Below, piece after piece: positions 16,284 to 59,449 of a DNA stretch of 64,000 bases. The position numbers and the translations under genes are program-made. The stretch covers positions 25,234,001 through 25,298,000 of the forward strand of contig NC_135667.1 of NCBI RefSeq assembly GCF_964188315.1, written 5' to 3'. How positions within the stretch are numbered: position 1 is the first letter of the stretch; the number at the start of each line of letters is the position of its first letter. The notes below the pieces were generated by a model, which saw only the letters and a list, made by a program, of their open reading frames with translations, ran no database searches and had not been told where the DNA came from. The stretch is from Podarcis muralis. Lineage: Eukaryota.

Positions 16284-17902
16284 CAGTGTTTCCCAACCGG
16301 TGTTCCGCGGCACACTAGTGTGCCGCCGGACGTTGCCTAGTGTGCCGTGGAAGTAGTGGCGTAGCGTGGGGGGTGCCAGGGGTGCCAGTCGCACCGGGCG
16401 CAACATCTGCGGGGGGCGCGAGTCCAGAGGGAAGGGACAAGTTCCTTCCTCCGCCGGGCTCCCCGCCGCCACCGCCAGCCTTGCGCCCTAGCGCGCGCGC
16501 CCCCCGCCGCCGCTGCGGCTGCGCTCCACTCACTGCTCGCAGGAGGAGCAGCCACTGCAGCAGCGCTGACACCGCCACCGACGCCTGGCCGGGCACGGGC
16601 AGCCTCCGCTCCCCGACGCCGACGCCATCCCCTTCCCCCTTTTTTTCCAGAGCTGGGGGAGGGGGAGGTTTTAAAAGGGGGTCTTGCATTGGCGATCCTG
16701 CAGCACTTTGGGCCGCACGACGCGAGCGCGCAGCACGGATCAGCCACGACCCCACCCCGTGCATTTCCCAGGGAAAAGTGCTCCACATGGGAGGCGCGTT
16801 TCCCCTTCATTCCCTCTCGTGCAAATCCTCCTTGGGTTCCCTCCCCCGTCTTTCCTCTCCCTACCTCACAAAAGCCTCACCTCGTCGCCTCCTCGCTGCC
16901 TCTCGCCTCCGCAGGAGCGTTTCCCTCCGCGGAAGAAGGAGCAGGGCGCTTTTGCAACTTTGCCTTCCCCGCCCCACCACGGAGCACATTTTCCTCGCCC
17001 CCCCAACCCCCGCATGTAGAATAGAAGCCCTCCAGCCTCCACGGTGCACAAACTCTCCCCTCTGCAATGAAGCGCTTTGTTGCATATCTTTGGTGAGGTT
17101 TTTAGGCAGTCTTGGTGCACCTTAAATCAGCGCTAATTGCGCCTGGACGCAGTATTTACTTCTGAGTAGGCCCCCTTCTCCCCCCCCCCCCCGTAGCACC
17201 TGACGTTGCTATTCGTATCATCAGGTTTGTTTGTTGATAATTTAATTGTTTTAAAAGCATCATGCTAAAGAGCTCTCTCCCACCCCCAGACCCTTGGGCA
17301 AAACAGAAACACACACATACACAAACACAGAGATTGAGCCCTGCAGGTTTTATGAAATGAATGGATTCTGAATGCCTGTTTCAGTGGCTTGTCCGCCTTA
17401 GGCTGCTGGGCCAGACACCTGTTACACGGTGCAGTCCGTAAGCTGTGAGCGCTGCTACCTGCCGCCGAGACCACGTAACGACAGTCTTGAAAGACCTACA
17501 TTGGCTCCCAGTACCTTTCCGAGCACAATTCAAAGTGTTGGTGCTGACCTTTAAAGCCCTAAGCGGTTTCGGTCCAGTATACCTGAAGTAGCGTCTCCGC
17601 CACCATCGTTCAGCCCAGACACTGAGATCCAGTGCCAAGGGCCTTCTGGCAATTCCCTCACTGTGAAAAGTGAGGTTACAGGGAACCAGGCAGAGGGCCT
17701 TCTCGGTAGTGGCGCCCGCCCTGTGGAATGCCCTCCCATCAGACATCAAAGAGATAACCATTACCTTCTATGCTGTTACTATTTTTTTATTTTTTTTTAC
17801 ATAAGTAAAAAGTGACTTTTCCCCATCTGGCATGGTGGTGTGCCTCGAGATTTTTTTCATGAAACAAGTGTGCCTTTGCCCAAAAAAGGTTGGGAAACAC
17901 TG
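16284..17902 (+). mobile_element. Non-autonomous hAT DNA transposon, copy 1 (1,619 bp)
   Basis: Perfect 15-bp TIR cagtgtttcccaacc / ggttgggaaacactg. 8-bp TSD GTTTAGAC at 16276-16283 and 17903-17910. Subterminal GTGTGCC repeats; no transposase ORF. Confidence 0.95.
17462..17760 (+). mobile_element. L2-type LINE ORF2 C-terminal fragment carried inside hAT copy 1
   Basis: Translates to RDHVTTVLKDLHWLPVPFRAQFKVLVLTFKAL...RAFSVVAPALWNALP with two stops. Same family as the ORF at 36975-37382. Confidence 0.85.
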
Positions 17903-29016: not shown

Positions 29017-30636
29017 CAGTGTTTCCCAACCGGTGTTCCGCGGCACACTAGTGTGCCGCCGGACGTTGCCTAGTGTGCCGTGGAAGTAGTGGCGTAGCGT
29101 GGGGGGTGCCAGGGGTGCCAGTCGCACCGGGCGCAACATCTGCGGGGGGCGCGAGTCCAGAGGGAAGGGACAAGTTCCTTCCTCCGCCGGGCTCCCCGCC
29201 GCCACCGCCAGCCTTGCGCCCTAGCGCGCGCGCCCCCCGCCGCCGCTGCGGCTGCGCTCCACTCACTGCTCGCAGGAGGAGCAGCCACTGCAGCAGCGCT
29301 GACACCGCCACCGACGCCTGGCCGGGCACGGGCAGCCTCCGCTCCCCGACGCCGACGCCATCCCCTTCCCCCTTTTTTTCCAGAGCTGGGGGAGGGGGAG
29401 GTTTTAAAAGGGGGTCTTGCATTGGCGATCCTGCAGCACTTTGGGCCGCACGACGCGAGCGCGCAGCACGGATCAGCCACGACCCCACCCCGTGCATTTC
29501 CCAGGGAAAAGTGCTCCACATGGGAGGCGCGTTTCCCCTTCATTCCCTCTCGTGCAAATCCTCCTTGGGTTCCCTCCCCCGTCTTTCCTCTCCCTACCTC
29601 ACAAAAGCCTCACCTCGTCGCCTCCTCGCTGCCTCTCGCCTCCGCAGGAGCGTTTCCCTCCGCGGAAGAAGGAGCAGGGCGCTTTTGCAACTTTGCCTTC
29701 CCCGCCCCACCACGGAGCACATTTTCCTCGCCCCCCCAACCCCCGCATGTAGAATAGAAGCCCTCCAGCCTCCACGGTGCACAAACTCTCCCCTCTGCAA
29801 TGAAGCGCTTTGTTGCATATCTTTGGTGAGGTTTTTAGGCAGTCTTGGTGCACCTTAAATCAGCGCTAATTGCGCCTGGACGCAGTATTTACTTCTGAGT
29901 AGGCCCCCTTCTCCCCCCCCCCCCCCGTAGCACCTGACGTTGCTATTCGTATCATCAGGTTTGTTTGTTGATAATTTAATTGTTTTAAAAGCATCATGCT
30001 AAAGAGCTCTCTCCCACCCCCAGACCCTTGGGCAAAACAGAAACACACACATACACAAACACAGAGATTGAGCCCTGCAGGTTTTATGAAATGAATGGAT
30101 TCTGAATGCCTGTTTCAGTGGCTTGTCCGCCTTAGGCTGCTGGGCCAGACACCTGTTACACGGTGCAGTCCGTAAGCTGTGAGCGCTGCTACCTGCCGCC
30201 GAGACCACGTAACGACAGTCTTGAAAGACCTACATTGGCTCCCAGTACCTTTCCGAGCACAATTCAAAGTGTTGGTGCTGACCTTTAAAGCCCTAAGCGG
30301 TTTCGGTCCAGTATACCTGAAGTAGCGTCTCCGCCACCATCGTTCAGCCCAGACACTGAGATCCAGTGCCAAGGGCCTTCTGGCAATTCCCTCACTGTGA
30401 AAAGTGAGGTTACAGGGAACCAGGCAGAGGGCCTTCTCGGTAGTGGCGCCCGCCCTGTGGAATGCCCTCCCATCAGACATCAAAGAGATAACCATTACCT
30501 TCTATGCTGTTACTATTTTTTTATTTTTTTTTACATAAGTAAAAAGTGACTTTTCCCCATCTGGCATGGTGGTGTGCCTCGAGATTTTTTTCATGAAACA
30601 AGTGTGCCTTTGCCCAAAAAAGGTTGGGAAACACTG
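29017..30636 (+). mobile_element. Non-autonomous hAT DNA transposon, copy 2 (1,620 bp)
   Basis: Same TIRs as copy 1 but a different 8-bp TSD, CCTTAATC (29009-29016 and 30637-30644). The only difference I see from copy 1 is one extra C in a poly-C run. Confidence 0.95.
30196..30494 (+). mobile_element. L2-type fragment carried inside hAT copy 2
   Basis: Appears identical to 17462-17760. Confidence 0.85.
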
Positions 30637-43509: not shown

Positions 43510-44466
43510 TCAGCTAGTTGGGTTTTGTGGAGAGAAGACCCTTGCAATTGTTTTCTTATATGCTTTCTGCACTTCTTTATTTCTTAGGGTATATATAATG
43601 GGATTTAAAACTGGAGTGACAACTGTGTACATAAGAGCACTCATTTGGTCACTCTGTGAAGTATATTTGGACTTGGGCATTAAGTAGGTGAAGAGGCCTG
43701 ACCCAAAGAATAATGTCACCACCATGAGGTGTGAGGAGCAAGTGGAGAAGGCTTTCCGCCTTTGCTCAGCAGAAGGAAGCTTAAGGATGGTTGAAATTAT
43801 GCGGACGTAGGAGAGGATAATTAGTAGGAAAGGACTCATGATAAAAGTGATGGTCACTGCCATGACTGCAATCTCATTTTTGTATGTGTCTGTGCATGCC
43901 GTTTTCACCACTGGTAGGATATCACAAAAGAAGTGCTGGATGTGTTGAGAGCCACAGAAGGGTAAGCTGAAGATCCATGCTGTTTGAGCAACTTGTACCA
44001 AGAAGCAAATAATCCACGCTGCGGCTGCCAACTTTGTACAGACTTGGTGATTCATGATTACTGTGTAGTGCAATGGGTGGCATATGGCAACATAGCGGTC
44101 ATATGCCATAGCTGCCAGGAGGCAACATTCTGTCAGCCCCAGGATGGTGAAGGCATACATCTGGGCTGCACATCTAGCTTTGGAAATGCTTTTATGTTTT
44201 GTTAACAGATGTGCCAACATCTGGGGCACCACACTAGTGGTGTATCCTATTTCTAAGAAAGATAGGTTTACCAAAAAGAAGTACATGGGAGTTTGAAGGG
44301 AATGGTTGAGTTTCACGAGCAGAATTATGAGCATGTTTCCAACTAAGGCAGTAATGTACATCAGCAGAAAAAACAAAAACAGCAAGATTTGCCATTCAGC
44401 AAGGTATGAAAACCCTACCAGGATGAACTCATTTAGACTGGTCTGGTTCTCAGCTAGCTCTTCCAT
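43510..44466 (-). CDS. Olfactory receptor, OR10-like array member 4, intact (318 aa)
   Basis: All canonical OR motifs present (MAYDRYVAIC, KAFSTCSSHL, PVLNPIIYTLRNKEV). Confidence 0.96.
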   Translation of the reverse strand: MEELAENQTSLNEFILVGFSYLAEWQILLFLFFLLMYITALVGNMLIILLVKLNHSLQTPMYFFLVNLSFLEIGYTTSVVPQMLAHLLTKHKSISKARCAAQMYAFTILGLTECCLLAAMAYDRYVAICHPLHYTVIMNHQVCTKLAAAAWIICFLVQVAQTAWIFSLPFCGSQHIQHFFCDILPVVKTACTDTYKNEIAVMAVTITFIMSPFLLIILSYVRIISTILKLPSAEQRRKAFSTCSSHLMVVTLFFGSGLFTYLMPKSKYTSQSDQMSALMYTVVTPVLNPIIYTLRNKEVQKAYKKTIARVFSPQNPTS

Positions 44467-47226
44467 AGAATGGATATCCTGTATGGAAGAGGAAAAGGCA
44501 CATCTAGATTATTAATTAAATCAGATTATTACACTATTGATACTGGTCTGGCTTGCATGTCACACCAGGCAAAAACATCATTTAGGATACAGGAATTCTA
44601 CAAATCCATAGTTAGTCTGGAGAAAGTTAGGGCATTAGAGTGGATTCAAATCTCATGGCATGGCATGGCATGGCATGGCAGCAAAGTGATCAGAGAAGAA
44701 CAAAGTAGATTAAATTTTCTTCCTGGAAGCCCCCATTCTCATATGTTGATGCTAAATTATGGTTTGCTTAGCCTGGCATGCAGACCAAACTATTATCTTT
44801 CCCACTCCCTCATTTTCAATCTTTCTCAGAACTGTTTTGTTAATGAATGTAATTGCCCCACAAACCTCATACACAAATGCCTTTGAAATTGGATTAAGAA
44901 TTGTCTAAATTATCACATGCTTGAATTCAAAACAGATTTTACAAAATGCTTAGGAATTTAAGAAGTGCCTGCTGAATCAGCCAAAAGAGCTATGTGGTTC
45001 ATCATTCTGTTCTTACACTGGCTTTCTATAAGACCCCCCAGGAGGGTGTGAATACAATAGCACTCATAAATGGGCATTGTTCCCAAATTTTCCTAATTTA
45101 TTCTCAGATTTTGGGATATATTACCTGAAGTAAAATGAATGGATTCAGAATTCTCTCTTGGGTCCTTTTATATTTTACAAGTTTCTACTTTCTAGCACTA
45201 TGTGTGCATAGTTTTATTTCACTTTCAGCTTTCTCATATATCCCCCCCCCCCAATCTTCCACATGTTGATAATGTACAGCTGTACATATTGTGAAAAAGT
45301 GCAGAAAAAGCACTTTCCTGGGTAGATTTTTTGGTGAAGCAAAATAGTGGTTTGGCTTACAGCTCATTAAATACTAGCAAATTTATAACTGCATAAGTTT
45401 TTGTGGTCCACAGTGCATAGTTGAAGGTGTTGACTTGTATGCATTGCTAAAACAGTGTAAAGAAGTAAACTTGATCCAATTGTACATGCAGTTGGATTAA
45501 GATTCTTATAAGTGGAGGACCGCACTGCATTAAAACAACACAATTTTGTCATGTGGTAATATGGTCAATGCAAACACATCATGAATAATGGTGCTGCTGG
45601 AAATCAAAACTAATCAGTTCATGTCAAATATAGTAGGTTTGCAGTTCTCAAATATATAACATGCCCTGATCCAATCATGTGAACTTTAACCCCGAATTAG
45701 GAACTGTCCTGAGATAACCCTGTGAGAGGAAAGGCAGTCTAGAAAACTGCTAAGTAAGAAAATATTTTGTAATTCAAAGCAAATCTGATTATGAGTTAAT
45801 TTTTACTTTCTGTGTTTATATGGCTCTTAGTGAGAGCCATATAATTTACAGAATTATGAGGTGGTCCAATGACTTTTTATCCATTCTCTTATTTGTTTTC
45901 TTTAGCTTTTTCAAAACTAAAATCTCTCTAAGCAGTTAGAAAGCACAGATCCTGCCACACATATTCAAAATGGGGCCATAAATGTCACTGGAAATGGCAT
46001 AATGTGATTTTGTAACAACATCTCCAGGGGCTGTGTGGAATTGAGAGAGACAGAGAGGGGAGAGAGGTCTATCCCTGTTTGATGTTTTGCAGACTACACC
46101 TTCTTTTTCATTGGAAATAATGTGCAAGGAACCCTTTTAAAAAGAAGCAGCTTACTAAAAATTGTTTGGGTAACCTTGTATTACTGCATCCAACTTACTG
46201 AAGGTATTAATGACATTGCAAGCTCATTTGATGGAGTCAGATTGCCAAACAGTAATCAAGAACAGTGGGTAGATGCCAATTAATATGTTGCACTCTTTTC
46301 TTACTCCAGCTTTCAAAGCATCACAACATTCTCCACTGTCTTAAAAACATAATAAATGGGCATAGTCTGTGACAATTCCAGTGTGAGTCAACATAATTGT
46401 CATCTCTTGGACTAATGTGTAGATTTAAATTTGATTATTCATCAGCTCTCACGCTTTCCAAATGTCCCAAATGCAAGTCATCCTCCTTGCAGGTAGAATA
46501 ATTTAAAAAGAGAGACGTCAAGTGGCACCCACGAGTCTGCTTTGAATCATTTGCATTTTATTCATTAATTATGTCTCTTTCCCTTTCTTTTCCTCATTTG
46601 TTTATATCCCTCACCTTTACTTTTCTTGATTATGATTCTAAATGAATCAAAATAAATATACATATGATCCCATTGTTGGGAGTTTGCTAGGAACTGGATC
46701 TAGTTGTCAACATTGCCGTCCTTAATACACACACACCAGAATGGCTGCTTACTGTCTTGTCAGTCAGTGGTGGTTGCAGCCTGATTTGGCACCTCCTTTC
46801 TCCCCCAGGCACGCAGCACCATTTTAGATTGTTTCCCAATCCCCTCCGGCCACTGTGGAGGCTCACGGGTTTCCACCTGTCCTTCAAATAAGGCAATCCA
46901 TGGCAGCCCTGGGGTGGCATGGCCATCTACTTATCCCGGCCAACCACTCAGCACAGCATCCCTTCGGCTGGGAACATCCTTAATACACATACGCACACCT
47001 CAACACCAGAATTAAAACACAGGCAAGCGTATTCATGTTTCATAAGAATTTATGACCTTTGATTTAGATTTAACAATCATACCCCCCACACCCTTAAAAA
47101 CTTACTTTGCAGAATGAGTGCTTGCTCTTTCTTGCTCCAAAACAGTGAAAAATGGAGTTCCAAGCATAGGTCTTTTCATAGATGTGCTCTCACCCTCAAT
47201 ACAGCTCAGGATTGAAGGAAAGTGTT

Positions 47227-47255
47227 GGGAATACCCTGCCAATGAATTCATGGAA
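47227..47255 (-). promoter_or_regulatory. Putative OR promoter motif
   Basis: GGGAATACCCTGCCAATGAATTCATGGAA, with candidate donors (aatcatacc; cttactttgc) about 130 bp toward the gene, as in the paralogs. Confidence 0.5.
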
Positions 47256-47495
47256 GCAACAAAATTCTATGTATTTAATCCACTAAAAAGAAGTGGTGTT
47301 ATCTCTAAAGTTGCAAGGAACATCAAATTATTTACAAAAATCCTATGTTTCCAAAGCCATTTAAAATACAATTTTCCAATGGCTTTTTATATATTTAGCA
47401 TTTCTAAATTCTTTTTGTATACTGCTTTTAGTCTCCCCCTTTTATAATCAGACCATGTGTATGATTTTTATGAAATAAATAATTTATCTTTGTGT

Positions 47496-48644
47496 TGTAG
47501 CACCCTGCTTGTGGTTAACGCTTAGCTGGAATGAAATATTCAACGCAGCAATAGAGAAATTAAAATAATAATTTATTTGTCAGACAAATAAATGAGAGGC
47601 ACAGTGGTATATGGTTACCAAGCTCTGGCCTGGCCTCCTGCCATTCTGGCCAGCACTTATATTCCCTTAATCCAGCCCCCTTTGCTCCTCCTTGGGCTGC
47701 ATCTGTCCAATCAGCCTGGTTGAAATTCCTATTGGCTGCCTGCTATATCCAATCACAAAAGATACACCCATATCCTCCTGTCCTTATAAGGGAGACAAAG
47801 AGCTATATATTGTTACATCTATAAATGACAAATAAGTAATAATATATCTTACATGGAATCTTAATTACCAGCTCACCTCTTGCCCTCTTTGCCCTATTGC
47901 CTTCTAAAACAAATGGTTAATCTTAAATTTTTATCTTAAACATATGTCAAGGATCTTGAATTTCACATCAACATTGAAAGATCTACTTCATTTGAAGGTT
48001 TCTAAACAAATGTCTGACAGCCATATATCAGGACTGCCCAGATGGCGTCTTCCTGTCCGGCAGGGGGCTAGGCTCAATGGCCCCTGTGGTCTATTCCAAC
48101 TCTAGGACTCTATGAAATAAGAATTTAGCATTTCTTTCTTTCTAGATCCTTTGCATAATTACATTTAAGCCAGCATATTTCATACATAACATATATAGCT
48201 TTTTAGAAGGATAAATCTCCTCAAAGTAAAAGGAAGGAACAGTTTACAGCCTCAAAATAAAAGTGAAGAAAAAAGTCTATTCCCCTGTTTACACTCCCCT
48301 CCTTCTCCAGCCAGTTGCTTGTTTTCCGTGTGCCCTTGGCCTTTTGTCCTGTGGCTCAAGTTTAAGAGAGGCCCATGGTATCATTTTACTGTTTACCCAC
48401 TCTTAATTATGTAGGGTCTGTGTAACCTTGGTCTTCAGCCTGTAATTCCAGCTTTTACGATTTTGAGAATTGTTTTCTGCTATAAATCAAGGGGGGCCCC
48501 TTGTCTTAGGAGAATGGCCAAGATTTTCTCTGCCTGGCATGAAACATTTGTGAATTTAAGCCCATTTTAGACTTTATGAACCTGATCAAAATATAAGTCA
48601 ATATAGACCTTGATTAAAAATGCAGTCTATATTCAGATGCCACA
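47496..48644 (-). repeat. ERV 3' LTR (1,149 bp)
   Basis: No mismatch to 52751-53899 found by eye. TATAA at 47657-47661 and AATAAA at 47572-47577 on the - strand; CCAAT boxes; U3 about 1 kb. Confidence 0.97.
47980..48115 (+). mobile_element. CR1 3'-end fragment embedded in LTR U3 (second copy at 53235-53370)
   Basis: Aligns to the CR1 at 22120-22254 (gacaaccatatgtcagga, ttcctg, ggcaggggg, atggccc, gtggtct, ttccaactcta, tctatga), roughly 75% identical by eye. Confidence 0.85.
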
Positions 48645-50173
48645 TTCCCCCCTTTCAAGCTCAAGGACCTTGCTTCACACCAAGGTCCTTGATAGCTTGA
48701 TCTTATGCCACATTCCTGAGGTAAGGCTCTGTATAGGGCCATGATATGAGGTAAAGTTTCATTTGAAACCATCTTGCTAATTGTACTTCTAAAACATGAA
48801 ATGATACATGGCATCATACATAAAACCATTACCACTACTGTCAAGAAAAACAAGCAAGACAATAGTATCCCTTTGAGTCCTGTGACATTAGGTAACCAAT
48901 TGGTGAGCCATCCCATATCCCATCCTTCCTTGTGGCCAACACACGGATTGCCTCACCATAATCAGAAATGTTAAAGCAACAGGCATTCCCTGTCAAGTTC
49001 AAGACTCCACATAGACCTCCCTGCTTGGCAAGTACATAATCCATTCCCATTTTCAGCTGCAAAATGGTGGCTCTACTTTCATCCAACTGTTGTGCAATAA
49101 GTCTCAAACTCTGGGCCGTTGCATTGGTTACCAGTTCCACTACTGCTTGCAATCGAATTATTCTGTTTAGATTATAAATAGGATCCCGTGCCCCTTGTAT
49201 GAGCTCACCAGGATTCCAGGAGGCAGGATCATAATAAGCTATAATGCGCTCTGGTGGCCAATCATCAGTACCGCTCCAACTTTGGGTACTTCCTCCTGCT
49301 ATACGAGAAATATCAGCATTCCTTCGTGTTCGCTTAGCTGAACTAGTGGGCATATCCACATTGGTGGTAATACCCATCCCAGGAAACAAGTCCCACTCCA
49401 TTTGGAAGGGAGTTTCTTGTATGCCCATTCTCCACATATCCACCACAACCATCGGGTCTGAGGTTTTTGGTACGTGGAGTACAGAAGGCGAAAATATCAA
49501 AAGAGGCAGAGAGTTCACAGTGCAGTATGTTAGATTGCCTTTTTCTGTCACAGTTATGTTCCATACCACTTTCCATGCATGAATAAAAGGAGGTGCACAG
49601 GGCAAGGTATTCCGAGTTCGATAGGTAGTACCGTGTGCCCAGGTATGACTATTCTTAAAATAATCCCAAGTATAGTGACAATGAGAAGAGCCTATCATGA
49701 TAGAATCAGCTGCATCTGATGATTTATGTACACAGAATTCCCCTTGTACAGGTATAACTCGTAATGGTTTAGTTGAGTTCCATCCGGGGAAATTCTGTAC
49801 TTCTGTTTGGTGTGGCATTTCGCTTACCATACCAATGGCATCTAATGGTATCGGTAATAAGGGCATACCTCCCTCTGAATCATCTGGCCCAAGAGAGCAA
49901 ACAAGGCAATTGGTCCTATTTGCAACATTGGCTACCATTTCAGCTAAACCTACCCACATATTGTGGTCATGGCTGAATCCATATTTAGCAAATTTGGTCA
50001 GATTCAAGGACCCTTCCCCTTACCAAGGGATCAGGATTAATAATAAAATCATGTTGATGTCTAGCATATGCATTCCTTCCACAAAAGATTACCTTATTGT
50101 GATAGCATAAAACTATTAGTCCCAATATAATTCCCCCAGTGACAGAAATGGGGAACCACCAAGACCAAAACAT
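48614..50173 (-). pseudogene. env: Retroviral envelope (gamma-type, ERV3/HERV-R-like), two frameshifts
   Basis: Hydrophobic N-terminal ORF (ATG 50173) is out of frame near 50015. Main ORF 48841-50007 has CLVC (CXXC), furin site RTRR (49321-49332), WPPERIIAYY...LNRIIRLQAVVE and an ISD-like LQLKMGMDYVLAKQGGLC. The TM anchor lies in another frame (48614-48916). Confidence 0.92.
48645..48656 (-). other. Polypurine tract
   Basis: GAAAGGGGGGAA immediately 5' of the 3' LTR on the - strand. Confidence 0.9.
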
Positions 50174-50384
50174 ATATCCCAAGGATCCCCAATGTGTAAT
50201 ATCTCTGATAATTGTTCCACAAGGGGGCAGTCAATCAATTGTATAAGAGAATCTTCCCTTTCACAATCGCTGGTTCAGATGCTCCTCAAGCTTCAGGCGT
50301 GCGCAGGTCAGCCAGCTTCCAGATTGTGGCTGCAGCAGGCCGGTCGTCTAATGTTGCCCGTGACCTAGCCCGTTCCCCGTAGGG

Positions 50385-50885
50385 CTAGATACAGGGGTTT
50401 TTGGAGAGAGTTAGTTTTAAAGGATTAGAGGGGTCACCTTTGCACGTCCAACTGCCTTCGGACTTCTTCAAACGGGAGTGATGAATCCAGGGGGTCACCT
50501 CAGCTACCTTCACCGCTGTTGGAGTAGAGAGCAAGACGGTGTAAGGTCCACGCCACTTAGGTGCAAGTGGATCACGTTTCCACTCTTTCACCCATATGCT
50601 ATGCCAGCCTGGAGCTGATGAATCTGCTCAGCAATGCTGCACGGCGTGTGCTTGAGGGCCCACCTGTTAAGATAAAAAAACAAACAAACACGGGAGAGAG
50701 ACAAAAACACGGGAGAGAGATTGCACTTGTCCCTGTGTCACATGGTCTCCTATTTGTTTGAGGTCAGTTGGAATATCCTGAACAAAGGAGGGCGGCCTCC
50801 CATACAGGAGCTCAAAAGGTGACAACTTAAGTCTTTTGTGGGTGCACACCGAACACGAAACAGTGTTATGGGTAACACATCTACC
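50385..50885 (-). pseudogene. pol: Integrase C-terminal remnant
   Basis: DVLPITLFRVRCAP / KRLKLSPFELLYGRPP / WVKEWKRDPLAPKWRGPYTVLLSTPTAVKV...WIHHSRLK (GPY/F domain), spread over several frames. Confidence 0.9.
50664..50720 (-). promoter_or_regulatory. Candidate env splice acceptor
   Basis: The - strand reads ...ctctctcccgtgtttgtttgtttttttatcttaacAG|gtggg, with AG at 50665-50664. It lies within IN, as in gammaretroviruses. Confidence 0.7.
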
Positions 50886-52215
50886 CTCCTGAGACTTTAG
50901 ACATATTAGTGGGCTTCTGGCATGCCCTGCAGATACCTTGCACAAGCGTCTGGCGGTAGGTGGTAAGCCTGGCCAGGTGAATCGCATTGTTTGGATCCCA
51001 ATTAGGATCTTCCAAGGGAAAGTTATCTTGGAGATGACGGTCAATATTAAAAATATTTCCCACTCTGGCCTGCTCACGCAAATATATCTGTGCCTTTTCA
51101 ATTATGTCTCTTCTTTCCTCAGTGGTGAACAGAGTATTCAGAAGCTGGCGACAATCTGTCCAAGTAGGACTATGAGTATTTACTATTGAAGTCACCAAGT
51201 CCATCATAGCCTGAGGTTTTTCTGCAAAAGATGGGGTGTGTGTTTTCCAATTCATCAGATCCGTAGTTGTGAATGGAATGTACTGAAGGGTCGAAGTTCG
51301 AGGTGGCCTTGGTCCGAGTTGCCCGTTAACCAGCACAGGCTCCTCAAGTGCATCAAATACTCTTCTGAGAGGGGCTACTACGTGATCTTTCTCTTCGCTT
51401 TGCTCTAGGGGCCTCAAATCATAGGGGATGGTATTTGTCCCAAGGCGTTCTTTTAGCAGCTTAATACGCCTGGCTGTATTGCTTGCTGACCGATTAAGGT
51501 CTCCCTGTAACTTCTGTAATAATTCTCTAGGACTTGGATGTACAGGGGTTTGGGGTAGGCAATCAGTTGTTCCACTAAAAGAGACTGTAGATGGAGTTCT
51601 ACTGGGACTCACAGGTGGAATAACCACTTCTGCTTGGGCTTCATTATAGGACTCCAATGCCTCCTGAAGATATTTATCATAATCTATCAAGGAATCAAGT
51701 TCTGTGTCTCTACCCCCATTATTCGTTCCACTTTCTTGCCTTGGGGTTACAACTGGTGGAGGGTTTGAATTAGGCTCCCTTCAATGTGGAGCATAGGGTG
51801 GAGGTGGAAACACCTCTTCCTCTGGTCCCTCAAAAATGGGTTTGAGTTTATTTGGCAAGATTCCTTTCCTAGCTTCGGCTTTTACAGCCAATAATTTGCA
51901 TCGTTGGACTTTGCATTCTCTTATCCATGGAGGATTTTTATTTAATGTGCTCAGCCAGGAATCTATATATGAAAATTGTTCTGGGCACCCTCCAGTTTCT
52001 TTGGTGATGTTAGACCAAAGTTTGCTTACTAAATTTATATCAAAAGTTCCCTGAGATGGCCATCCAGTATTTTGTTTTGGCCATTCTAGTTCACATAACG
52101 TTCTCAAGCGCTCTGGCGTCATTTTGACTCCATATGCCCCTGAGAAGGCTTTCTTAAAATTATTTAACATACATTCAAGAGGTGTATTTCCCCCCTTTGA
52201 ACCCCCAACTCCCAT
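50881..52215 (-). pseudogene. gag: Gag (MA, PPPY region, CA N-terminal domain), with an in-frame TGA and 3' truncation
   Basis: MGVGGSK (myristoylation-type start at 52215), gamma-like MA (LRTLCELEWP...GWPSQGTF) and PPPY, then TGA at 51783-51781. The same frame continues into p30 (PFTTTDLMNWK, PTWTDCRQLLNTLFTTEER, FPLEDPNWDPN) and breaks at KPTNMSKV. Confidence 0.93.
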
Positions 52216-52465
52216 TGTATGGCCCTGTGAAGTATCCACTCAGTCACTCACACACACGCTTCGTGGGTTTCCTTGCCCAGATGGAGTCGCCTCACTGGGA
52301 ACCGAAGTACTACCCACTCCACACTCAGGTCAGCTACAGATTGCTCTGTACTTTCTCACACATACAATGCGCAAGATACTTCACCACACTCTACCTCCCA
52401 TTCTTCCCTTTCCCCCCACCAGACCACCATCTGATATACCCAACCACCTAGCGTACTCAGTTCCC

Positions 52466-52549
52466 ACTTACTGAGACGCAGAAGTTTGATCAAGACTTCT
52501 CTTCCTCCCAATTAATTGGAGGGCCAAAAATCCCTTTGTGCACTTACCC
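52466..52549 (-). promoter_or_regulatory. Two candidate splice donors in the ERV leader
   Basis: GG|GTAAGT with GT starting at 52547, and CA|GTAAGT with GT starting at 52471. Confidence 0.55.
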
Positions 52550-52726
52550 CTTGGTTGGTTCCGTTTCCCCCCGGTCCGTCGCCGCCAGTGGGCAGGGTAT
52601 CAGACAGACGAGACTGCTGCGTTCCCCTGGAAAAATTTTTTCCATTGCGCGCTGGGTAGGCAGTGTGGTCCTCTGTCTTGTACCCCGTCCAGTAAGGCGA
52701 AGGGGCTGCGTTCCAGCAGACCACTG

Positions 52727-52745
52727 ATCCGAGTCGCAGGCACCA
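52727..52745 (-). other. Primer binding site, tRNA-His-like
   Basis: TGGTGCCTGCGACTCGGAT versus TGGTGCCGTGACTCGGAT (complement of the vertebrate tRNA-His 3' end, recalled from memory); 5 nt downstream of the LTR end. Confidence 0.75.
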
Positions 52746-52750
52746 TAAAA

Positions 52751-53899
52751 TGTAGCACCCTGCTTGTGGTTAACGCTTAGCTGGAATGAAATATTCAACG
52801 CAGCAATAGAGAAATTAAAATAATAATTTATTTGTCAGACAAATAAATGAGAGGCACAGTGGTATATGGTTACCAAGCTCTGGCCTGGCCTCCTGCCATT
52901 CTGGCCAGCACTTATATTCCCTTAATCCAGCCCCCTTTGCTCCTCCTTGGGCTGCATCTGTCCAATCAGCCTGGTTGAAATTCCTATTGGCTGCCTGCTA
53001 TATCCAATCACAAAAGATACACCCATATCCTCCTGTCCTTATAAGGGAGACAAAGAGCTATATATTGTTACATCTATAAATGACAAATAAGTAATAATAT
53101 ATCTTACATGGAATCTTAATTACCAGCTCACCTCTTGCCCTCTTTGCCCTATTGCCTTCTAAAACAAATGGTTAATCTTAAATTTTTATCTTAAACATAT
53201 GTCAAGGATCTTGAATTTCACATCAACATTGAAAGATCTACTTCATTTGAAGGTTTCTAAACAAATGTCTGACAGCCATATATCAGGACTGCCCAGATGG
53301 CGTCTTCCTGTCCGGCAGGGGGCTAGGCTCAATGGCCCCTGTGGTCTATTCCAACTCTAGGACTCTATGAAATAAGAATTTAGCATTTCTTTCTTTCTAG
53401 ATCCTTTGCATAATTACATTTAAGCCAGCATATTTCATACATAACATATATAGCTTTTTAGAAGGATAAATCTCCTCAAAGTAAAAGGAAGGAACAGTTT
53501 ACAGCCTCAAAATAAAAGTGAAGAAAAAAGTCTATTCCCCTGTTTACACTCCCCTCCTTCTCCAGCCAGTTGCTTGTTTTCCGTGTGCCCTTGGCCTTTT
53601 GTCCTGTGGCTCAAGTTTAAGAGAGGCCCATGGTATCATTTTACTGTTTACCCACTCTTAATTATGTAGGGTCTGTGTAACCTTGGTCTTCAGCCTGTAA
53701 TTCCAGCTTTTACGATTTTGAGAATTGTTTTCTGCTATAAATCAAGGGGGGCCCCTTGTCTTAGGAGAATGGCCAAGATTTTCTCTGCCTGGCATGAAAC
53801 ATTTGTGAATTTAAGCCCATTTTAGACTTTATGAACCTGATCAAAATATAAGTCAATATAGACCTTGATTAAAAATGCAGTCTATATTCAGATGCCACA
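52751..53899 (-). repeat. ERV 5' LTR (1,149 bp)
   Basis: Same length and apparently the same sequence as 47496-48644. Confidence 0.97.
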
Positions 53900-54196
53900 G
53901 TGTGACTGTTCAACAGACACATGTTCAGAGGAAGCATAAGAGTGGTAGCAAGTCCTGCTTCCGACCTACACATTTGCTAGAACATCAGCATGTTTTCTAC
54001 CAGGTGTGCAGCATTAGTTTTGCTAAACTGGAGCATTGCTCCACCACCCACCCTAATATTTGCACATTTTATATGGATGTTTGAAGTGAAGTGACTAGGC
54101 ACAAGCCAATGCTCTCATCTAGGTGGAATATTGACGTATTCACTGTATTTATGCCATCCAATGCTTGAGGGAACCTAATTCCGCAGGGAAAGTGTT

Positions 54197-54227
54197 GGGA
54201 GCATTCCTCTGATAAAATCCATCAGGG
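54197..54227 (-). promoter_or_regulatory. Degenerate orphan copy of the OR promoter motif
   Basis: GAAAGTGTTGGGA is shared exactly with 47218-47230, followed by gcattcctctgataaaatccatcaggg. Confidence 0.35.
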
Positions 54228-54418
54228 ATAGAATGATAATAAAACAGTGTTGTAGGGAAATTCAGGTCAAAAGACCTTTAGAGAGTTTAAAAGTGCTACA
54301 TGCAGAAATATATTTTCCCTTTTGGTATGGAGATGAAACAGGCAATATCATTACAAATTCATTCATTAGTGCTTGGTAGGGAAGAATCTGTAAATTATGC
54401 TTGGTCTATTAGAACACA

Positions 54419-54782
54419 GGGGACGCGGGTGGCGCTGTGGGTAAAAGCCTCAGCGCCTAGGGCTTGCCGATCGAAAGGTCGGCAGTTCGAATCCCCGCGG
54501 CGGGGTGCGCTCCCGTTGCTCGGTCCCAGCGCCTGCCAACCTAGCAGTTCGAAAGCACCCCCAGGTGCAAGTAGATAAATAGGGACCGCTTACCAGCGGG
54601 AAGGTAAACGGCGTTCTGTGTGCTGCGCTGGCTCGCCAGATGCAGCTTTGTCATGCTGGCCACGTGACCCGGAAGTGTCTCCAGACAGCGCTGGCCCCTG
54701 GCCTCTTAAGTGAGATGGGCGCACAACCCCAGAGTCTGTCAAGACTGGCCCGTACGGGCAGGGGTACCTTTACCTTTACCTT
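54419..54782 (+). mobile_element. Full-length young Sauria-type SINE (364 bp)
   Basis: A-box/B-box-like head, CpG-rich body and (TTTACC)n tail; 12-bp TSD TATTAGAACACA (54407-54418 and 54783-54794). Confidence 0.95.
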
Positions 54783-57435: not shown

Positions 57436-58368
57436 TTATCTAATTAATAACTTACTTATTGCTCTTTTCACTTCTTTGTTCCGTAGGCTATAAATGATAG
57501 GGTTAAGCGTTGGAGTTATGATATTGTAGAGAACCCCAACAAGCTGGTCCTTTTCCAGTGAGTAGCTGGAGGTAGGTCGAAAATATGTGAATATCCCAGA
57601 GCAGTAGAACAGAATCACAACTGTGACATGAGATACGCAGGTGGAAATGGCCTTGTGACGATGTCCTTTTTGCTGATTGTTGAAAACAGCATGAAGAATC
57701 AACGAGTAGGAGATCAGAGTAAAGAAAAAAGGGCTAAAACCTACAAATACACCCACTGTAAAAAGTGCCACTTCATTAATTGATGTGTCAGAGCATGAAA
57801 TACTCAGCAATGGAGGAATGTCACAGTAAAAATGACTGATCACATTAGATCTGCAGAAAGACAGGCGGAATGTGAGTGCTGTATGGAGAGTAGCATTGAA
57901 GAAGCCACAAGCCCAGGATACTGCAGTCAGCTGGAGACAGGTCCATTTAGTCATGAATCTTGCATAGACCAATGGGTGACATATAGCAAAGTACCGATCC
58001 AAAGCCATAGAGGCAAGAAGAAATCCCTCAGCACCCGCCAATGAGATAAGAAAATACATTTGTGCTGCACAATCCAGTAAGGAAATGTGTGGAGATTGGA
58101 CCCAAAGATCTATGAGCATTTTAGGGAGAGTCACGGAGATGTAACAGATATCTAGGAAGGAGAGATTGCCAAGAAAGAAATACATAGGTGTGTGGAGGGA
58201 CTGATTTAATAGAGACACAGTGATGATGACTGAGTTGCCCAAGAAGCACATAATATACATTGTGAGGAAGAGGATGGTGAGCAAGGACTTCCCTCTTTTA
58301 ATAGTTACAAATCCCAGAAGTACAAATTCTGTTATTGATGTTTGGTTGTTGAAGAAGGATGTGCCCAT
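57436..58368 (-). CDS. Olfactory receptor, class II, intact (310 aa); paralog of 19622-20572
   Basis: Motifs LHTPMYFFL, MALDRYFAIC, HFYCD, KAISTCVSHV and PTLNPIIYSLRNKEV. Confidence 0.95.
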   Translation of the reverse strand: MGTSFFNNQTSITEFVLLGFVTIKRGKSLLTILFLTMYIMCFLGNSVIITVSLLNQSLHTPMYFFLGNLSFLDICYISVTLPKMLIDLWVQSPHISLLDCAAQMYFLISLAGAEGFLLASMALDRYFAICHPLVYARFMTKWTCLQLTAVSWACGFFNATLHTALTFRLSFCRSNVISHFYCDIPPLLSISCSDTSINEVALFTVGVFVGFSPFFFTLISYSLILHAVFNNQQKGHRHKAISTCVSHVTVVILFYCSGIFTYFRPTSSYSLEKDQLVGVLYNIITPTLNPIIYSLRNKEVKRAISKLLIR

Positions 58369-59449
58369 GGTGTCTTATCTGAATATTACAGTTAGGAGAG
58401 TGCTATTTTAGAAATTTCAGTACTATTCAGCATTATCAGTGAAAGCTTTCCAGGTATAATGCAGCTATATAGACTGTATCACCTTCATGGCTTTCCGTAT
58501 GCAACAAATTCCACTGTGTGGTTGTACCTGAAAAGCAAATTGTTACACTCACTGTCCATGAGCAAATATCACACGTATCAAGGTTAACAGGATTTGCTAC
58601 CCTCTCCCCTTATATGCTTAGGTCAGTTTGATCTTTTTAGGACTCAAACTCCTGCCCTCAGTTTCATAGACCAACCATCACCAGTTCTTCTTTACATTTG
58701 TTAAGATCAGTCTTAATGACCTTGCAGCTGAGCTTTCCATGCAACTTCTGGTTGCTGCCAAAACTGTGTTAACCACATATTGGAAAGCTCCTACATTACC
58801 ACCCGTTGGAGGATGGCTTATTAAATAAATAAATAAATAAATGCATAAATGTTGGGATAGATAAGCTGATGTTATAGATAAAATTGCATTATTACCCGAG
58901 GAAAAAATAAACCAGTTCCTCCAGTTTCAGGGTGTGTGTTTTCGTATGGGAGAATCAAACCATTTTTTAACACACTAGAATTTACACTAAAATTTTGTCC
59001 CATTGCATATAATTTGTTTGTGTAAATATGATAATAGAGTAGGAAAATATTGACCAGTCCAGCCCATACCATGGCTTCCTGGCAGGAAGTATGCATTCTG
59101 TGATATGCAGACCACAGGCACCGTCTCAAGTGAAGTTATCGGGAGTTTCAAAAGAATTTATATTTTGATGCCTCTGACCACATCATGGACACTTCCACAA
59201 AGAAAAAGATAGCAAGAGGTTTGATGAGAGTGCACACTATTTGTGTGCTCTTAGAAATAACATGTAATAACTATCCCTATCATTCCTCCCTATGAAACAT
59301 ACTTCTTTCATTTTCTATTAATACAAAGCACAAACACTCAGTTCTTATTCTTTCATACTTCAAAGAGCAAATTCAGAGGATGTCAAACATAGCCAACTTA
59401 CACAAAAATGCTCTCTGGCCACCAGAGAAGTACTATTTCTTATTTTAAA

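Follow-up and report, generated by a model that had tools for sequence, protein, structure and literature searches.

How a pair of identical long terminal repeats (LTRs) comes to enclose a heavily damaged retroviral interior is the question raised by positions 47496 to 53899 of a 64,000-nucleotide stretch of the Podarcis muralis genome (assembly GCF_964188315.1, contig NC_135667.1, positions 25,234,001 to 25,298,000 of the forward strand), hereafter the window. The provirus found there is, with an estimated probability of about 0.88, a recent, unfixed member of a non-autonomous lineage, marked by a deletion, within a young gamma-like endogenous retrovirus (ERV), likely copied and inserted by the proteins of full-length members. 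This reading is built on a deletion junction shared with other loci that have their own target site duplications (TSDs), LTR pairs that are matched within loci and not between them, a class of copies with open frames, an empty allele, and the mosaic structure of both the interior and the U3 region.

Layout and damage of the provirus

The provirus lies on the minus strand, its LTRs have the ends TG...CA, and both a primer site of tRNA-His type and a polypurine tract are recognised. Along that strand the order is 5' LTR, a 5-nt spacer, primer site, leader, gag (start at 52215), deletion junction, integrase (IN) tail, env, polypurine tract and 3' LTR. The borders of U3, R and U5 were inferred from the CCAAT, TATAA and AATAAA motifs. 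In window coordinates, the features are as follows.

47492..47495, plus strand: left copy of the TSD, GTGT; single copy in the contig that bridges the empty site
47496..48644, minus strand: 3' LTR, 1,149 bp, with a U3 of ~1 kb; CCAAT at LTR position 910, TATAA at 984, AATAAA at 1068
48645..48659, minus strand: polypurine tract with a 2-nt spacer, recognised from sequence
48663..50073, minus strand: broken env, apparently of EnvR group-1 type; CXXC near the N-terminus, RTRR cleavage site, CX9CC
50385..50886, minus strand: C-terminal remnant of integrase; Pfam MLVIN_C, three length changes
50886..50889, minus strand: gag-to-IN deletion junction; about 3,712 nt lost
50881..52215, minus strand: truncated gag; Gag_MA, PPPY late motif, first half of Gag_p30, in-frame stop at 51783-51781
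51025..52585, minus strand: tract of the full-length class (recombinant patch) in an otherwise deleted-lineage genome, from divergence from both classes
52727..52745, minus strand: primer-binding site with an imperfect match to tRNA-His, 5 nt after the LTR, from sequence
52751..53899, minus strand: 5' LTR, identical to the 3' LTR by alignment
53900..53903, plus strand: right copy of the TSD, GTGT, from sequence

The preliminary description of the locus reported two 1,149-bp LTRs without a mismatch and an intact 4-bp TSD, and this holds: 47496-48644 and 52751-53899 differ at 0/1,149 positions, the identity ends exactly at both borders, and GTGT stands on both sides. The gag-to-IN deletion described at the same time is also present and removes the end of capsid, nucleocapsid, protease, reverse transcriptase (RT), RNase H and most of integrase; with ~3.7 kb missing, the copy is unable to encode its own RT and integrase. 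No microhomology was evident at the junction by count. The mapping of cis signals covered the LTR ends, the primer site and the polypurine tract, all of which are kept.

The smaller lesions had been counted, together with the deletion, as "at least 7", a figure that is true as a minimum but too low. The gag stop is in frame as claimed, and the two frameshifts and the insertion of ~23 nt reported in IN are recovered as three length changes in the remnant, at 50874-50837, 50701-50677 (the larger one) and 50602, as judged against 30 open-frame relatives. Env, credited with two frameshifts, is indeed disrupted, but the damage is greater: a stop lies in frame at 50022-50020, four length changes (49494, 49364-49354, 48927 and 48791-48706) break the frame, and a fifth (48681-48672) keeps it. 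A 392-codon env frame still reads through, because the changes at 49494 and 49364-49354 cancel out.

The three IN states of the window copy are common to 4, 17 and 36 of 40 deleted copies, the env stop to 15 of these 40, and the env length changes to 27, 20, 19, 14 and 17 of them; none of the nine IN and env lesions occurs in any of the 30 open-frame copies. The gag stop is found in one of 70 relatives, copy L005, which is the nearest deleted neighbour of the window copy in the first 300 nt and at 51850-51550. No substitution in the interior is private to the window copy when it is compared with the 70 relatives; one alignment has two seemingly private gap columns near 52665, but the block length there matches 16/40 deleted copies. 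Lesions private to this copy were ruled out, as all ten smaller mapped lesions recur in other deleted copies. Since the lesions are shared and no private substitution is found, the interior damage predates integration, as had been proposed.

The surroundings of the provirus (window 667-62395) are an olfactory-receptor cluster of ten intronless frames of 312-343 codons with Pfam 7tm_4 matches. The provirus sits between the receptor frames 43510-44508 and 57436-58374 and interrupts neither. Elsewhere in the window, two regions 12.7 kb from each other (16315-17125 and 29048-29858) have an identical set of long frames that overlap; a Pfam scan of one frame from these regions gave no match, and the pair is probably a duplicated simple repeat.

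The family, its full-length class and its age

Relatives were sought in the assembly from which the window comes (1.52 Gb). The junction 24-mer is found exactly at 80 sites (control 0), and the junction is colinear in 33/33 aligned copies. Other loci with the same junction and different TSDs, as predicted earlier, therefore exist: at least 80 loci share it, and a perfect 4-bp TSD flanks 37 of 39 non-tandem deleted copies, as it does 26 of 29 full-length copies. A DNA search, in which 37 of 484 candidates were scored, gave a short interior in every case. With at most one mismatch, and with controls of 0, a gag word just upstream of the junction occurs at 253 sites, a pol 24-mer inside the deleted part at 136 and an R-U5 word at 775, which suggests a family of about 136 copies that bear pol, some 117 other copies and about 270 solo LTRs (775 minus ~2x253).

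The first 40 gag-word matches on contigs C1-C5 that were not exact junction matches, taken in list order with one on C3 or later passed over, comprise 33 loci of full or almost full length, 6 with the same deletion and 1 with a different deletion. Gag, pol and env are all open in 30 of the 33 full-length copies (30/40 non-junction loci), at ~640, 1,198 and 481 amino acids; scaled to 136, this proportion (95% confidence interval 76-98%) points to about 120 open-frame proviruses in the genome, an estimate that exact-match sampling may push upward. A TAG stands between gag and pol, with pol in frame, in 30/30 open copies, and env begins after a gap of ~315-317 nt (about 50385-50073 in the window) and then runs for its 481 codons. 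An env start within the 81-codon frame 50230-49985 was rejected, as the open copies start ~317 nt after pol. An ATG-started frame of 62 codons overlaps the env start in 30/30 open copies. Among these 30, the pairwise ratio of nonsynonymous to synonymous diversity (piN/piS) is 0.11 for gag, 0.09 for pol and 0.35 for env (95% confidence interval for env 0.17-0.70), values that point to purifying selection on all three full-length genes. Constraint on env is usually taken to mean spread by reinfection, and its selection here suggests that the helpers spread in this way.

An intact helper with the same LTR and primer-binding site had been predicted. The full-length class has open frames and its R-U5 in common with the deleted class, but U3 and the commonest primer-site variant differ. 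The shared junction, the separate TSDs and the open-frame class support the earlier proposal that a helper mobilised a defective genome and that the family was recently active. In the deleted class, an env frame of at least 480 codons is kept in 9/40 copies, and in 6/40 gag is also open to the junction; some of these passengers may still make Env. Locus L075, with identical LTRs, has a different and smaller internal pol deletion and is a possible second passenger lineage.

Presence or absence across individuals, suggested earlier as a check, was examined in assembled contigs from six of 24 listed runs. In run X1, one contig of 1,084 nt matches 46953-47495 and 53900-54406, the two matches sharing four letters, and this is an empty site with a single GTGT. 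Contigs of X15, X16 and X13 extend 539, 2,842 and 544 letters beyond the flank without entering the LTR (X15 and X16 are from the same study as X1, and X13 has another organism label), and those of X9 end at 47495 and restart at 53924, which fits a mixed site or other variants. No piece bridging flank and LTR is among the matches listed for the runs, whose contigs drop rare variants. From flank identity (e.g. 2 differences in 543), the X1 animal appears to belong to the same species. Because its contig bridges the empty site, the insertion appears unfixed, with some other lizards carrying no provirus here. A high-copy element of ~375 bp, 500 bp to the right of the provirus (window about 54407-54782), is skipped by the X9 and X13 contigs and entered by X16, and is a second polymorphic insertion; this SINE-like element (short interspersed element) is presumably a Sauria SINE.

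Recency was first argued from LTR identity. Integration does seem recent, but identity alone is a weak bound: at assumed rates of 1-3e-9 substitutions per site per year, zero differences place the age of the window copy only below about 0.4-1.3 million years. The empty site in other animals supports recency better. Across the family, the LTR pair is identical at 22/39 deleted and 16/29 full-length loci, and mean pair divergence is 0.036% and 0.029%, respectively, or about 50-180 thousand years (kyr) under the same rates. The dating omitted the tandem units L007-L009 and L037, a tandem unit of the full-length class, a copy whose 5' LTR is rearranged and two further broken copies of the full-length class.

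Such dates are also what would be expected if the family went through a burst tens to hundreds of kyr ago and is now still, its unfixed insertions being standing variation. We regard this as possible, if somewhat doubtful. The ~270 solo LTRs already formed and the 99% identity of pol across two named Podarcis species agree with it; over half of the LTR pairs are identical, however, frames are open in 30/33 full-length copies, and errors of copying or assembly may account for part of the LTR differences. A finished burst is compatible with the helper mechanism and disputes present-day activity only.

Mosaic structure and the probable route of mobilisation

At 64 sites diagnostic of class, which were defined from the same copies as were tested, the window copy falls into 9 runs (permutation p<=1e-5). 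It is of the deleted type at 52696-52591, of the full-length type at 52585-51025 bar one site, and mostly of the deleted type from 50977 on. The middle tract differs from full-length copies by 0.9% and from 16 core deleted copies by 3.7%; for the 3' part of the interior the figures are 2.5% and 0.9%. Many deleted copies contain such full-length tracts, and it is beside the junction that they most often retain deleted-type alleles. In one full-length copy the 5' end and the primer site are those of the deleted lineage.

The LTRs vary far more. They are distinct between loci in 70/73 cases, with a mean distance of 12.3%, and range from 512 to 1,356 bp across the sampled copies. U3 is ~12-27% different between loci (~14-27%, with large indels, over LTR positions 1-700 of 73 LTRs), while R-U5 differs by 0.2-1.1% and the interiors by 1-3%. 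In the window LTR, two 100-bp blocks exactly match full-length copies; this U3 mosaic is the same in both LTRs and therefore dates from reverse transcription or earlier. Retroviral mosaics are ordinarily explained by a switch of template between co-packaged RNAs, and the window copy is a mosaic of deleted-lineage and full-length sequence, as expected from co-packaging with helper RNA.

In the proposed mechanism, a defective RNA that retains its cis signals (LTR, primer site, leader and polypurine tract) would be packaged by helper Gag-Pol beside helper RNA. Its reverse transcription would be primed by tRNA-His, template switching would recombine the defective and helper RNAs, and helper integrase would insert the defective copy. 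Arrival by infection or within one germ cell would both be compatible with this scheme.

Trans-mobilisation could also be real with the mosaics produced by ectopic gene conversion between integrated proviruses instead of by co-packaging and template switching. About 250 near-identical proviruses provide many donors, and tandem arrays with shared LTRs suggest recombination at the DNA level, but we consider this origin unlikely given that both LTRs of the window copy have the same U3 mosaic, that nearly every locus has its own LTR and yet a matched pair, and that deleted-lineage alleles persist most often next to the junction. The array on contig C5 at about 3.289-3.315 Mb (L007-L009, L037) has five deleted-type units with a spacing of 5,247 bp, and pairs are found on C1 and C6; these arrays likely arose by unequal LTR recombination.

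It is very improbable that the provirus is an old, decayed one whose LTR identity is only apparent and stems from assembly collapse or LTR-LTR conversion. The lesions are shared and not private, the nearest other LTR is 4.3% away, the assembly preserves small LTR differences at 31/69 other dated loci, and the site is empty in other animals. Spread of the shared deletion through host segmental duplication is hardly credible, as a few tandem arrays exist but the flanks differ, the TSD is perfect in nearly all non-tandem deleted copies and the LTR changes from locus to locus. All three readings, namely collapse by the assembler, conversion between LTRs and segmental duplication, were rejected as the source of the pattern.

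Several points weigh against helper-driven mobilisation as set out above. The LTR identity of the window copy is read from the assembly sequence. Of the six runs, X9 is ambiguous and X5 has no cover at the site. The gag stop, matched by one copy alone, could be recurrent, and the mosaic tracts could partly stem from gene conversion between integrated copies, including an earlier parent copy. The samples are biased, the deleted copies being mostly best BLAST matches and the full-length ones exact 24-mer matches on five contigs. Moreover, the support is at the level of sequence, and open frames do not prove function.

Classification, known systems and significance

Pfam matches to Gag_MA, Gag_p30, MLVIN_C and TLV_coat indicate Gag, Pol and Env of class I (gamma-like) type. 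The nearest named proteins are Podarcis records: P. muralis and P. raffonei for pol (99% identity) and a P. muralis record for env (97-99%). Identity of pol is 52% with PERV and 48% with Rauscher MLV. The family is like the genus Gammaretrovirus (MLV, PERV) in having MA, p30 and one zinc knuckle, the gag-pol TAG, YVDD, an MLV-type IN C-terminus and a 4-bp TSD. In contrast, its pol is only 48-52% identical, its env is of EnvR type, and its RT, in a quick tree of 33 of 120 listed proteins, falls in a lacertid clade (SH-aLRT 99) separate from the mammalian MLV/PERV clade (100), within which a strict definition of the genus would place it. The same definition has CX6CC in the transmembrane subunit (TM); the window copy and record P0123, an env of 481 amino acids with CXXC at 56 and the cleavage site at 248-251, have CX9CC.

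The available part of bioRxiv 10.1101/2024.03.17.585361 gives for EnvR group 1 a CXXC ~40 residues from the mature N-terminus and ~175 from the end of the surface subunit (SU), and a unique CX9CC. The lizard env has CX9CC in TM and CXXC ~40 residues from the mature N-terminus, and appears to be of EnvR group-1 type with a short SU. Like that group as presented there, it is a Podarcis Env in which an N-terminal receptor-binding domain is not expected, but its CXXC lies ~190 residues from the cleavage site as against ~175. That preprint, in its available part, concerns protein structure without copy number or activity, and its Env-Pra may or may not be this env.

The primer site matches tRNA-His perfectly in 14/73 sampled copies and is mismatched in 59/73 (14/73 against one half, p=1e-7, with the relatedness of copies ignored). 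There are six mismatched variants, which carry 1-3 extra bases, and the commonest differs by class (16/30 full-length versus 19/40 deleted copies). Searched with a pattern of 1-5 variable bases, the genome has six tRNA-His genes with a perfect 3' end. A dedicated tRNA for the variant sites was rejected, as the search gave these six and one non-tRNA match, none fitting a variant, although the pattern would overlook a tRNA that deviates at other positions in it. The same mostly mismatched pattern, with the commonest site mismatching its tRNA, is described for ETn, MusD and IAP in the available text of PMC7472051, where escape from tRNA fragments is proposed and scattered perfect copies are read as reversions by tRNA copying. 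In the lizard, unlike these elements, the helper keeps env under purifying selection, the primer is tRNA-His, and the variants have 1-3 extra bases and differ by class. MusD is not known to have an env.

The mechanism is already known from the bovine ERVK D and C types and from ETn/MusD, and the locus alone is an ordinary example of a known process. Mouse ETn/MusD, IAP I-delta-1 and recombinant KoRV (PMC7472051 and PMC10924933, as far as available) are likewise non-autonomous partners of a coding element. Bovine ERVK[2-1-LTR], in the available part of PMC10924933, has as here a ~10-kb competent class (C) and a shorter defective class (D), LTRs that are identical although the interior between them is gene-dead, insertions that are polymorphic and a defective class mobilised in trans, which for the lizard we infer. 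It belongs to the ERVK clade, with 15% C, 85% D and one recombinant among 221, and its de novo insertion was demonstrated in cattle. The lizard family differs in being gamma-like, with ~136 pol-bearing copies to ~117 others, in its plain deletion without a foreign insert and in its common recombinants.

In the available part of PMC10435555, the ERVi class is defined by identical LTRs, intact genes and insertional polymorphism and has five squamate host species; the marked rows, taken to be these hosts, are an anole, a sea snake, a crocodile lizard and two rattlesnakes, and five lacertid rows are unmarked among the rows listed. The full-length class resembles ERVi in its identical LTRs (16/29) and in having gag, pro, pol and env intact (30/33), but the window copy itself lacks intact genes, and it was at this defective locus that polymorphism was examined and found. 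No account of the family as active was found in the literature searched, which left most subscription journals and repeat databases outside, and PMC9723728, in its available part, excluded retroviral transcripts from its analysis.

The novelty lies in host and scale: the family is young and gamma-like, occurs in a Podarcis-type lizard and has ~120 open-frame proviruses, an EnvR group-1 env, a hypervariable U3 and a mostly mismatched tRNA-His site. The family appears to be still invading the wall lizard genome. More tentatively, and a little short of an even bet, an invasion on the koala scale may now be under way. The ~120 open-frame proviruses would then be those of an infectious virus that still reinfects the germ line and whose minimal EnvR-type Env has no N-terminal receptor-binding domain; defective passengers, in nearly equal number, would recombine with it continually, U3 would be shuffled so that nearly each provirus has its own enhancer, and reversion of the mismatched tRNA-His site would be opposed by silencing of the copies with a perfect match.

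In cattle, mice and koalas, broken ERVs are known to spread with the aid of a helper, and large, possibly ongoing invasions are documented in few reptiles and, in the literature found, in no lacertid. Existing population data for this widely sampled lizard would allow three tests outside mammals: whether defective passengers displace helpers (proposed in the available part of PMC10924933), whether primer-site mismatches are favoured as an escape from tRNA-fragment silencing (proposed in that of PMC7472051), and in what way the shuffling of U3 diversifies the LTRs. Hundreds of unfixed LTRs would also add to the structural and regulatory variation of these lizards.

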